A stretch of DNA of 64,000 bases from Tubiluchus corallicola (Eukaryota > Animalia > Priapulida). The position numbers and the translations under genes were made by a program. Positions 51,607 to 63,863 of this stretch are shown here, one piece after another; the first letter of the stretch is position 1, and each line of letters begins with the position of its first letter. The DNA is taken from the NCBI GenBank assembly GCA_030141605.1, contig JAQGDQ010000878.1, positions 1 to 64,000 on the forward strand, read 5' to 3'. Below the pieces are notes generated by a model, which saw only the letters and a list, made by a program, of their open reading frames with translations, was not told the DNA's origin and made no database searches.

Positions 51607-51693
51607 ATGGCAACCGGAGGTGGCGATGTTCCGTCTACCATCAAGGTGCTGAAAGGGACAATAGTGAATGCTAGATATGCTAGTCGACGAAAT
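51607..51693 (+). CDS. Caspase-STING exon 1 (29-aa N-terminal peptide)
   Basis: gccATGG Kozak context; MATGGGDVPSTIKVLKGTIVNARYASRRN|GTGAGT, phase 0 matching the next exon. Confidence 0.65.
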
Positions 51694-54600
51694 GTGAGTT
51701 ACTAATTTGATGTCGCATGTCATGTTGTTAAGTTTGTAAAAACAACCAAATAAATTACTGAATTGTCAGTGGGTTTATTTTTCCCAAGTCTGATAAAAAA
51801 ATATTCCCTTTTGGTTACTTTGTGTATAATAATGTAACACATGTAACACTTTTCCTACATCCTCACTAACTTTCTTGTCCAGGATTTTTTATCCAGGGAT
51901 CAAGGTCAAGGTCAAAACCTGGGTGAAAAGATCATCAACTGAAAATCGCCAGATAGATTGAATTTGAGCCTGGATTTGGATTCTAGGTATTTTTCTGATT
52001 AAAACAACACCTCTCACATGCATTTTGGTTCAGTAGGTGTTGAGATATGAATTTTTGAGATTTCAGGCAAACGCGAGAATGTGAAAACCTCAAGATTTCA
52101 AATTGTCATAACTTTTGAATGGGTGGACCAATTGACCTAAAATTTTGAACATAAATTATTGTCATAAAGCCCAATAACCGCGCCAAGTTTCATCAAAATA
52201 TGAGATGGTCGGGTGTAGATGATCCAAGATTCTTGGTGAATTGACATGGAATGACCCTATGGACAAGTCAGCCGTGTTTGAATTGTCTGAGGTAGCATGC
52301 AAAAAGTTGCCTGTTAATGCTTTATACATGAAAGAGCATTCTGTGGTAGACAGTTTAGTATTTTGTTGCTCTGTGTGGTGCACCTCTGGTTGGCAATCAT
52401 GCAGTCTCTTCATGGACTTAGAACTTCTGTGTTTGAAATTTAAGAGAAGCCTCAACAGATCCGGGAAGCAAATATTACATAGAGGTGTCTGTGATGCATT
52501 CCGTTTGTGTTCACAGTGTCTTCTCTGTATAGCAACAATTCTGTCCTTTTGATTCATATTTTGCCACTTTGATGGAATGTAAAAAAACATTTTGAGCATA
52601 GATAGCTTTTAAATAAATTTTGTTTTGATTTCTTAATTTAACTTATTTGATTTAATTCCAGCATACTAAATTACTATCTTTTTCCAAACACACAACAAAA
52701 GTGTATATTTCCTCAAAATTAGCGAAGATGTGCATAATCTTGTTAATGCTTTAAGTCAGGGGTGTGCGATTTGCAGCCCGCCGAGAGAATTTGTGCGGCC
52801 CGCGAAGAGATTTGTCAACCTAATGAAAGTGCGGCCCGGGCGATTAATTGAATGTATCCAGCTGAAGTCCGTGCCACGATCCCAAAAATAGTGCGGGTAG
52901 TTTTTTCTACTAGATCGGATGCCATTAACCCTTACAAGACGGTTGTAGGTTAATGTCACTGTACTACACAGACTGTGTGATACACATTACTAATATGCAT
53001 TGTAATGAAATTACCACTATCTGTCCTGAAAGTAGAAATATATGGTTTGTAATATAAATTTTAATAACTTCTAAAATAGTTTCTTGGGTGTAGTAGTAAT
53101 GATGTATGCAGGTCGGATGCAAAAAAATCGTTATTAGGTCCTACTGTACTTAGCTCCTTGATCAAACTGCCTGTGGCCCGCAGGAATTGCGGGAAAGTTT
53201 AATGTGGCCCGGCTAGTCAGATAATTTGCAAATCCCTGCTTTGTACCGGTCATTCATCATCCAATAAATGTGGCTGGTTGTATGGCAGATCCGCAATATT
53301 GATGTTCAGAACAGAACATGCTTAGTGAAGGTAGGTTTTGGTTATTCGGCAGCTCCACGTTAAGCAGAGGTCAGTAGAATCAATAAAGTCAGTATTCCAT
53401 AATCTGCACATTCTCGATCCAGTTTTCATGTGGTTACGTCATGATTTTCACAATAGGGACCACATTTTGTATGTTGCTGCATAACTTACACGTTCTGGAC
53501 CAACTGTGCATGCACTTCTGTATAACCTGTGCAATACAGACCCACATTCCTAGCGTTGTTACATGAGGTCACCACTTAAAACTACTGCATATGTTTAACA
53601 TTTCTAATCAATGCATGTGTCTCAAACTGCATAAGTCATGAGATTTGTCACTGTTGCTTGGCAAACTGTTGTTATCATATGTTGTTACTTATTAGGTATA
53701 TCCCATGGATTCCACACCACGCGGCTACTGCTTGATCATTAATAATGTTGAGTTTGATGCAAGAAAAGTAAACAATGAGTTTGGCATGATTGTGGACTTC
53801 AAACCAGAAACTAGAAAAGGTTCTGATGTGGACGAAGTAAAGCTAAGGAGTCTGTTTGACCAACTGGGATATGTTGTTGACCGAACACAGTCCAATCTGA
53901 CGTCTGAGGTATGATACAGGGCAAGTGCAAATACAGCCAACTGATCTGATAGAATTTTGTTTGTTCAAGCCTGCATATGAAGTTCACATATTACATACTG
54001 AATACAGAAAGCTATAAATTGTAAAGTTTGTAGCACTGTTTGGTAATAATAAAATAAAAGTACAGTGTAACTTATTACTGTAAATGCTTAGATAATGCTA
54101 ACATGAAACATTTATACATTACTTTGGCTGGCCTGTAGTGTAACAAATTCTGGTTTTCATTGACTGCATTTGGTACACACCATCTATTTTTGTTGCACAG
54201 TACAAGCATGCAGTTTTCATAATTATCAGATGAAATTTTTCCTTATAGTTTACCTAAAATCAAAAGGTAATTTGCTGCTGTAAACTCTGGTAACTTTACA
54301 TGCTGAAAATTATTTTAAGTTTTGCAGAGACTAGTCTGTAGGGAAATAACATAGTTGTCTGGCAAAGCAGCAGTACCATCACATCTCCACTTCTAAACAT
54401 CGTAAATTATAGAGACCAACTATAAAGATTCAAGGTGCATCTAACCTGAGTGTTAATAAGCCATCAGATTTTTACTATTGCAATATTCTTTACAGACAGT
54501 TTTTGTGTTCAAATACTGGATTCAGATAATTCGCTTTTTGGAACGTTGCACGGATATTTTGATAGTATTACTGCTATTTATAAGGGAGACTCGGGTAAAG

Positions 54601-63600: not shown

Positions 63601-63863
63601 CCTTCAAGTCCTGTGCTAGATTGTGCAAAGTTTCTGATGACTGCTATTAAAATTTAACTTTTATAATTGTCAAATTTATAATGACATTCAACTCTTTCAT
63701 CAACTTACACTTTTTCTGGTACAGGTATGCTGGGCTCTATTTCCACCATTATTCAATTAATCTTCAACAGCGTTTGAATCAGTTTAAACGGCCAGGTGCA
63801 CAGCAGAGTGTCGAGTCAGACAGTGATGATGACGATGATGAACTGATGGAAACAGACGACCAG
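51607..63863 (+). CDS. Caspase-STING fusion protein (>=593 aa, 3' end beyond the window)
   Basis: Hand-assembled join(51607..51693,53696..53908,55264..55423,56583..56645,57704..57892,59797..59906,62554..62694,62908..63584,63725..63863). All introns are GT-AG with matching phases (0,0,1,1,1,0,0,2); 1779 nt, no stops. Confidence 0.82.
52757..53238 (+). mobile_element. hAT MITE, copy 1 of 3
   Basis: CAGGGGTGTGC...GCAAATCCCTG; near-identical to 55626-56086 and 60867-61349; TSD degenerate. Confidence 0.88.
53696..53908 (+). CDS. Caspase exon 2 (start of p20)
   Basis: VYPMDSTPRGYCLIINNVEF...RKGSDVDEVKLRSLFDQLGYVV...NLT. Confidence 0.93.
54583..55238. mobile_element. TIR non-autonomous DNA element (pogo-like)
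   Basis: GGGAGACTCGGGTAAAGTGGATCAC / GTGATCCACTTTGCCCGGGTCTCCC; internal GGGCAAAGTGGATC repeats. Confidence 0.75.
55264..55423 (+). CDS. Caspase exon 3 (catalytic His)
   Basis: QMLSVIETFAQDPKHASVDSCVVAMLTHG... Confidence 0.92.
55626..56086 (+). mobile_element. hAT MITE, copy 2 of 3
   Basis: TIR CAGGGGTGTGCAAATT; perfect 8-bp TSD ATCTAAAT. Confidence 0.92.
56583..56645 (+). CDS. Caspase exon 4 (catalytic Cys)
   Basis: HSAVHLSGKPKIFILQACRG. Confidence 0.95.
56763..57278 (+). mobile_element. 5'-truncated CR1-like LINE
   Basis: LRIGFSQLNYDLF..CNCG..ESVEHFLLHCPLY..LLFG..FI..TKRF* (ORF2 C-terminal Cys/His motif); flanked by 12-bp direct repeat TAACTACAAAAT. Confidence 0.85.
57704..57892 (+). 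CDS. Caspase exon 5 (inter-subunit linker, start of p10)
   Basis: Phase 1-1 open exon DESQEP...KLTQDSG...PIVGNTIVCRASVSG. Confidence 0.85.
58074..58432 (+). mobile_element. Solo LTR (359 bp)
   Basis: TGTTGTG...CACAACA termini, 5-bp TSD GTGGC, TATA-like TATATAA at ~58186, AATAAA at ~58359. Confidence 0.85.
59797..59906 (+). CDS. Caspase exon 6 (p10)
   Basis: GYASMRSETRGTWFIRKLVTEF...HIHELMTR. Confidence 0.93.
60867..61349 (-). mobile_element. hAT MITE, copy 3 of 3 (inverted)
   Basis: Reverse complement of copies 1 and 2; 8-bp TSD GTGTAAAG. Confidence 0.92.
62554..62694 (+). CDS. Caspase exon 7 (end of p10)
   Basis: VHRQV...QVPELESSLMTRLFFNPPL|GTAAGT (matches the caspase C-terminal Q.P...S.L...L.F motif). 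Confidence 0.9.
62908..63584 (+). CDS. Exon 8: STING-like ligand-binding domain
   Basis: LGTALAYWHWIGY, DMAGMKGRKY, VAVDYPTAIQAI and FHKTLQDIV parallel the STING motifs VAHGLAWSYYIGY, DRAGIKDRVY, VLEYATPLQTL and FCRTLEDIL in order. Confidence 0.8.
63725..63863 (+). CDS. Exon 9: start of a probable second STING-like domain + acidic loop
   Basis: Phase-2 join gives VGFLIAER|YAGLYFHHYSINLQQRLNQF...VESDSDDDDDELMETDDQ|GT. Confidence 0.65.

Follow-up and report, generated by a model that had tools for sequence, protein, structure and literature searches.

Gene structure at the locus

The DNA analysed here is a 64,000-nucleotide (nt) stretch of the priapulid Tubiluchus corallicola (positions 1 to 64,000 of contig JAQGDQ010000878.1, assembly GCA_030141605.1; hereafter, the window), which is intron-rich animal DNA with a G+C content of 36%. 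Near its end, on the + strand, lies a gene in which a caspase is followed in the same frame by two STING domains. A sequence-only reading of this stretch had described seven exons encoding a full caspase, joined to an eighth exon carrying a STING cyclic-dinucleotide-binding domain. The positions of these exons, their GT-AG introns, and their single open frame were all confirmed when the exons were joined by coordinates. Exon 8 is not the last one, and the second STING domain, which begins in it and continues in exon 9, had been missed. Exons 1 to 9 joined together give 593 open codons that reach the exon 9 donor, and exon 10 with most of the second STING domain of this locus lies beyond the end of the window.

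The coding part of exon 1 (51607..51693, on the + strand like all the others) holds the start codon and a 29-residue N-terminal peptide with no CARD, DED, or death prodomain. Exon 2 (53696..53908) encodes the first strand of the caspase and the S1-pocket residue Arg69, and exon 3 (55264..55423) encodes the catalytic His128 within LTHG (55345-55347); both match the Pfam family Peptidase_C14 above its cut-off (E values of 6.4e-6 and 1.4e-5, respectively). The QACRG motif with the catalytic Cys172 (56636-56638) falls in exon 4 (56583..56645), which is matched in a tblastn search by P0001, a homolog described below. The intersubunit linker and the start of the small subunit are encoded by exon 5 (57704..57892), with D197, D200, and D206 as candidate Asp cleavage sites judging by motif, while exon 6 (59797..59906) contributes the S1-pocket Arg243 (in SMR) and GTWFI, and exon 7 (62554..62694) the end of the small subunit. 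The exon 7 donor, CTT^GTAAGT at 62695, opens a phase-0 intron of 213 nt, exactly as first read, leading to exon 8 (62908..63584), which encodes STING domain 1, the inter-domain linker, and the first residues of domain 2. The exon 8 donor at 63584 (AG^GTCTGT, phase 2) joins exon 9 (63725..63863), which aligns to domain 2 of P0001 and of Priapulus proteins and encodes helix 1 of this domain and an acidic insertion, ending in a phase-0 donor. A high-copy element of ~460 nt occurs three times in the introns of the gene (~52770-53240, 55630-56090, and 60870-61350), one copy being inverted.

An in-frame stop lies nine codons 5' of the ATG in exon 1, and an AG dinucleotide lies 2 nt before it. A hidden prodomain exon upstream is unlikely, because a contig from run X6 (see below) extends through this AG to 51595 and because the homologs P0001, P0003, and P0167 start at the same position as the window protein.

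The caspase part, the STING domains, and their junction

The best PDB matches of the family profile were CED-3 and caspases. In the window caspase, the catalytic dyad (His128 and Cys172) is intact, and Arg69, Gln170, and Arg243, recognized by motif as the S1-pocket set, are all kept; their S1 roles are presumed from caspase-1 numbering. Asp-specific proteolysis is predicted from these catalytic and S1 residues. No CARD, DED, or death domain was found in the ~30 residues before the catalytic domain, and the homologs have no such Pfam match. Likewise, Pfam reported no TIR domain in P0001, P0003, or P0005, whose N-terminal part is a caspase (Peptidase_C14 E values of 6e-29 in P0001 and 1e-47 in P0003). 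Both catalytic residues are present in three of the five caspase-bearing members, namely, the window gene, P0003, and P0005.

The identity of exon 8 as a STING domain was borne out by a profile search, in which it matched the Pfam family STING_LBD (PF15009) with an E value of 7.2e-10 and 39 bits against a cut-off of 27. Its best sequence matches in PDB were oyster STINGs (6wt6, E value of 8e-6; 8ydn, a C. gigas STING, E value of 2e-5). The exon 9 frame by itself has no Pfam match, and STING_LBD matches two stretches in each of P0001, P0002, P0003, and P0005. None of five proteins has a membrane helix, the hydropathy over 19 residues never exceeding 1.6 (maximum of 1.02 in the window protein).

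The STING fold was modeled with low confidence on the Priapulus homolog P0002, not on the window protein, and every Foldseek match listed for that AlphaFold model is a STING. Residues 238-460 of the model (domain 2) superpose on residues 154-338 of human STING (Z of 14.7, root-mean-square deviation [rmsd] of 3.2, 151 aligned), and residues 18-204 (domain 1) on 8ydn (Z of 13.5, rmsd of 3.8, 176 aligned), the first unrelated fold appearing only at a Z of 5.3. A prediction of P0002 domains 1 and 2 in complex with 2'3'-cGAMP, made without an alignment and with the fold of the partner uncertain, yielded no verdict (score of 0.00). A single-sequence AlphaFold model of P0001 reached a predicted local distance difference test score (pLDDT) of 32 and was left unused, and the ESM Atlas offered nothing usable for the family (top feature score of 0.82).

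The two STING domains are only 16-19% identical to each other and are separated by a linker of 51-63 residues. Residue equivalences to human STING are partly assumed and are anchored on alignments and the structure match. At the position of Ser162, domain 1 has Trp and domain 2 has Arg in each of the eight sequences compared (Trp335 and Arg547 in the window protein); this invariant pair and the low identity between halves are as expected of a specialized heterodimer. Domain 1 in the window keeps Tyr340, Arg413, Tyr415, Asp434, and Thr437, equivalent to positions 167, 238, 240, 260, and 263. In domain 2 of the homologs, the aromatic residue at 167 (Y/F) is kept, as are the R238 equivalent and an E-Y/F-A-T-P motif in the seven of seven homologs that cover this region. 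According to passages of 10.1101/2023.02.22.529553, the universal ligand contacts of STING are two stacking aromatics and a lid Arg, positions 162 and 263 (Ser162 and Thr263) are specificity switches, and characterized STINGs have Ser or Asn at 162. Since the pocket floor of the present family is unlike these, its ligand is uncertain and may be unusual or even lacking.

Across the window protein, P0001, and P0003, the caspase-to-STING junction is gap-free, even with no more than 29-56% identity in domain 1. In P0001, it lies within one intron-less open reading frame (ORF) of 655 amino acids, which fills its 2188-nt contig; an uninterrupted ORF of this extent makes the contig look like a spliced transcript. 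Furthermore, a contig from a second DNA study (X4 contig 20) spans 62617-62931, from exon 7 through intron 7 into exon 8, with four differences, which argues against an assembly chimera. Run X6 is a putative RNA run whose contigs are ~90% alike to the window and therefore derive from a paralog or close relative, not from this locus. X6 contig 24 joins 51595-51695 to 53699-53802 without the intron, that is, exon 1 to exon 2, and no X6 contig covers exons 3-8 at 80% likeness. X6 contig 25 matches 63830-63864 with four differences in 35 positions and then exits at the exon 9 donor, past which a hand translation reads in frame GVKFTIDKLL, where P0001 has GVKFTINKLL in its second STING domain.

The paralog of DNA runs X1 and X2 ceases to resemble the window 9 nt downstream of the exon 8 donor, and the likeness returns 13-14 nt before the exon 9 acceptor. 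Exons 8 and 9 differ from the paralogs by at least 11 insertions or deletions, those listed all being multiples of three alone or as adjacent pairs, and intron 7 has one single-base insertion or deletion among the rows listed. Together with X6 contig 25, these comparisons agree with the splice from exon 8 to exon 9 that the P0001 sequence indicates. The caspase-STING fusion is almost certainly real; as read from the sequence alone, it is supported by homologs that share its in-frame junction.

The exon 8 donor is weak and is followed within 63585-63651 by an in-frame read-through stop (63592-63594) and an ATTAAA (63646), so that a short isoform with one STING domain is possible. As an alternative gene product, a protein ending at 63592-63594 would be at most a minor isoform: an X4 contig that diverges at the same place past the donor has the donor and no read-through stop.

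Relatives, known STING effectors, and other features of the window

Used as a query against longer proteins, exon 8 matched one of 1047 candidates, P0001, which is 49% identical over exon 8 and has Peptidase_C14 beside its two STING_LBD stretches. The named relatives of the gene come from Priapulus only, and divergence is deep: the caspases of the homologs are 38-39% identical to that of the window (39% in Priapulus), and domain 1 is 56% identical in P0001 and 29% in Priapulus. Six loci of the family were found in Priapulus caudatus. XP_014670077.1 (LOC106811066) and XP_014664583.1 (LOC106806925) contain a caspase and two STING stretches by Pfam, LOC106806933 matches both families, and LOC106810332, LOC106813086, and LOC106817462 are shorter partial models starting inside the caspase tail. 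Despite their divergence, the Priapulus models share with the window the caspase-STING-STING layout, the junction, the Trp/Arg pair, and the site of the acidic insertion in domain 2.

A HMMER search with P0001 over 1.84 billion representatives passed 1656 proteins, of which the 150 representatives listed were examined. By a local profile, STING-like domains occur in three of these 150 (P0001, Priapulus P0005, and scallop P0106), and a Pfam scan of 47 selected, mostly long proteins from the same 150 found caspase and STING together only in P0005. Word-based searches are incomplete, an alignment search having missed P0001 itself, and two scans of metagenomes returned no relatives. Among the matches listed, then, the caspase-STING-STING family looks rare. 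Passages of supplement file 5 of PMC9980059 count two cGLR and five STING genes in Priapulus; therefore, a source of ligand exists in that relative. Set against the six loci found here, the five STING genes counted there suggest that caspase fusions may account for most or all of the STINGs of Priapulus. As a separate observation, the decapod crustacean proteins P0007, P0009, and P0018, of ~800 amino acids, have three tandem caspase-domain stretches.

The scallop protein P0106 (Ylistrum balloti XP_060080375, 1422 amino acids) has TIR domains and four STING domains of two alternating types, domains 1 and 3 being 58% alike, domains 2 and 4 54%, and domains of different types 25-29%. This alternation hints that the tandem TIR-STINGs of molluscs may also form asymmetric pairs. 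In a tree of 16 domains, the even-numbered P0106 domains grouped with domain 2 of the present family and the odd-numbered ones with domain 1, with support of only 79 and 77, so that an ancient tandem common to both is no more than a possibility.

Several known systems resemble the window protein in part. TIR-STING proteins (bacterial Cap12, PDB 7un8; oyster, 6wt6 and 6wt7) are likewise soluble and carry an enzyme effector at the N terminus instead of the membrane helices, but that effector is TIR, whereas the window protein has a caspase and a Trp/Arg pocket floor. Canonical TMEM173 STING, unlike it, has four N-terminal membrane helices. STING domains are repeated in the scallop protein XP_060080375 and in oyster proteins that combine two TIR with two STING domains (passages of PMC11103948); however, the repeated TIR-STINGs of molluscs have one effector per STING domain, and the window protein has one per two. 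Passages of PMC10732462 describe bacterial STING fusions to a trypsin peptidase, a hydrolase, and a deoxyribohydrolase, and passages of PMC12424679 a fungal PNP-STING fusion. In these, as in the window, STING was shuffled onto an enzyme effector, but none of the fusions in those passages has a caspase, an animal origin, or two STING domains in tandem.

The SAVED-CHAT system of Haliangium ochraceum (type III CRISPR/CBASS; passages of 10.1101/2023.06.23.546230) would be alike, if the mechanism proposed below holds, in coupling a nucleotide sensor to a caspase-like protease activated in filaments. It differs in being bacterial, with a SAVED sensor, a cA3 ligand, and a CHAT protease, and the window protein, with STING_LBD and Peptidase_C14, is not a member of that group. 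In Drosophila, an ecdysozoan, oligomerized STING activates a caspase (STING-FADD-DREDD; passages of PMC13144350), although through three proteins with a membrane-anchored STING and DED adaptors, whereas the window gene encodes a single prodomain-less chain.

The sequence-only reading knew of no characterized animal caspase-STING fusion. Among the papers listed by our full-text search, none was found to describe one either, and surveys by Burroughs/Aravind, Morehouse, or Margolis might mention it. The word "caspase" does not occur in the text and five supplement files of PMC10732462, in PMC12424679, or in the supplements of PMC9980059, and the fusion does not appear in passages of PMC10855445, PMC8866957, and 10.64898/2026.04.20.719644. 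The layout itself is not new to databases, being already present in RefSeq, as the Priapulus models, and in UniRef under the name "uncharacterized protein." This is apparently an undescribed STING-effector fusion, combining a caspase effector with a tandem asymmetric sensor.

Elsewhere in the window, an intron-less open frame at 38330-39583 (+) encodes an endophilin-A-like protein with BAR and SH3 domains, likely a retrocopy, the genome being intron-rich otherwise. Calcium-binding EGF exons that are nearly identical form two long tandem arrays at ~3800-14500 and 26600-33830 (+); somatomedin-B-like exons lie upstream, and there is a PAN exon at 33515-33826. More somatomedin-B-like frames lie near 15600, 18000, and 23300. 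A 393-codon open frame at 2-1180 (-) has the look of an ORF1 of a long interspersed element, with a Pfam match below threshold only.

Proposed mechanism, alternatives, and meaning

Initiator caspases are activated by dimerization. Starting from the observed exon structure, domain identities, intact catalytic residues, lack of a membrane helix, and conserved layout, we propose that the gene encodes a soluble, prodomain-less caspase whose two tandem STING domains pair within the chain and whose nucleotide-driven oligomerization activates the protease, a reading to which we give a probability of roughly 0.55. A one-component, nucleotide-switched caspase, as first suggested from the sequence, remains in our analysis the best reading, although the second STING domain changes its mechanism, as each sensor would then bear one caspase in place of a constitutive homodimer bearing two.

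In the first step, domains 1 and 2 would pair within one chain, and the single caspase of each sensor would be monomeric and inactive at rest. The pocket would then be closed by a nucleotide, either cGLR-made or microbial, and closed units would stack side by side in the manner of TIR-STING filaments, through which bacterial TIR-STING is activated (passages of PMC9402430); cA3-driven filaments similarly activate the SAVED-CHAT protease, and oligomers of Drosophila STING engage FADD and DREDD (passages of the works cited above for these systems, 10.1101/2023.06.23.546230 and PMC13144350). The STING pair would thereby replace the absent CARD/DED prodomain, so that the caspases dimerize and cut their own linkers, and the output might be cell death or cleavage of a factor of the NF-kB/Relish type. 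Because STING domains are homodimers, fusion to just one STING domain would keep the caspases paired at rest; two unlike domains in one chain would leave each sensor with one caspase, and tandem duplication would avoid the constitutive dimerization of a single-domain fusion. More tentatively, and with slightly less than even confidence, the single-chain asymmetric pseudo-dimer may read a nonstandard nucleotide and directly switch the fused caspase, the duplication serving as a safety catch; the protein would then be a sensor and executioner in one, in the style of CBASS but assembled from animal components.

Several observations weigh against this reading. Domain 1 has Met or Leu for R232, its six Priapulus copies all have Lys for R238, the Y240 equivalent is absent from Priapulus domain 2, and Trp and Arg at the floor of the pocket could keep out a standard cyclic dinucleotide. 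P0001 has no catalytic His, no SxR arginine, and lacks most of the intersubunit linker, and the model P0167 (isoform X2) has no Cys motif. The tandem STING part of the P0002 model is weak (pLDDT of 50, predicted template modeling score of 0.42), no RNA contig crosses the exon 7-8 (62694^62908) or 8-9 junction of this locus, and the window showed no cGLR gene.

The same pocket changes (the invariant Trp/Arg floor, the loss of R232 and of Y240 in domain 2, and Lys for R238 in Priapulus domain 1), along with the expansion to six loci in Priapulus and the variable acidic loop of domain 2, would also suit a ligand-independent guard or decoy, in which a STING pair that binds no nucleotide restrains the caspase until a STING-targeting pathogen protein binds or cuts it. 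We consider this unlikely, as the equivalents of Y167, R238, Y240, E/D260, and T263 are kept in domain 1 of the window, and R238 and E-Y/F-A-T-P in domain 2 of all seven homologs covering them, despite deep divergence; such conservation would be less expected of a decoy. It is rather unlikely, too, that pairing occurs between chains (1-2 from one molecule to its neighbor, or 1-1 and 2-2), giving preformed dimers or chains on which a ligand acts allosterically. STING domains are normally V-shaped intermolecular homodimers (passages of 10.1101/2023.02.22.529553), and some mollusc proteins repeat the TIR-STING unit (P0106; passages of PMC11103948), but the linker of the present family is plausibly long enough for intramolecular pairing, and Trp-Trp or Arg-Arg at a two-fold axis would probably disfavor homodimers.

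The incomplete catalytic sites of P0001 and P0167 could instead indicate that the fusion serves mainly as a scaffold or as a dominant-negative regulator (a c-FLIP-like protein or a sponge for nucleotides), with proteolysis incidental. P0001 may indeed be, from its residues, a pseudo-caspase-STING-STING and a possible regulator within the family; as an account of the family at large this is very improbable, since the window gene, P0003, and P0005 keep the catalytic pair and the window gene also keeps all three S1 residues. An annotation artefact, with a caspase gene beside a separate STING gene, is hardly credible: the missing RNA contig over 62694^62908 and a stop after 11 further codons of exon 7 read-through would fit it, but the intron-less ORF of P0001, the gap-free junction of the Priapulus models, the independent DNA contig bridging intron 7, and the absence of AATAAA/ATTAAA from that intron do not.

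Characterized animal STINGs signal via adaptors, kinases, or, in flies, FADD and DREDD, and nucleotide-gated protease fusions have been described in bacteria. If the proposed mechanism is true, the caspase-STING-STING protein would let an animal convert a nucleotide signal directly into protease activity, without adaptor proteins. Because the protein is soluble, an in vitro nucleotide panel with a caspase read-out could reveal which ligand it binds, perhaps a novel cGLR product, and an asymmetric STING pair held in one chain would make visible how the geometry of the oligomer drives the effector. The protein is also a possible template for nucleotide-triggered protease reporters, and such a switch would bear on the role that STING had in interferon-less invertebrates.

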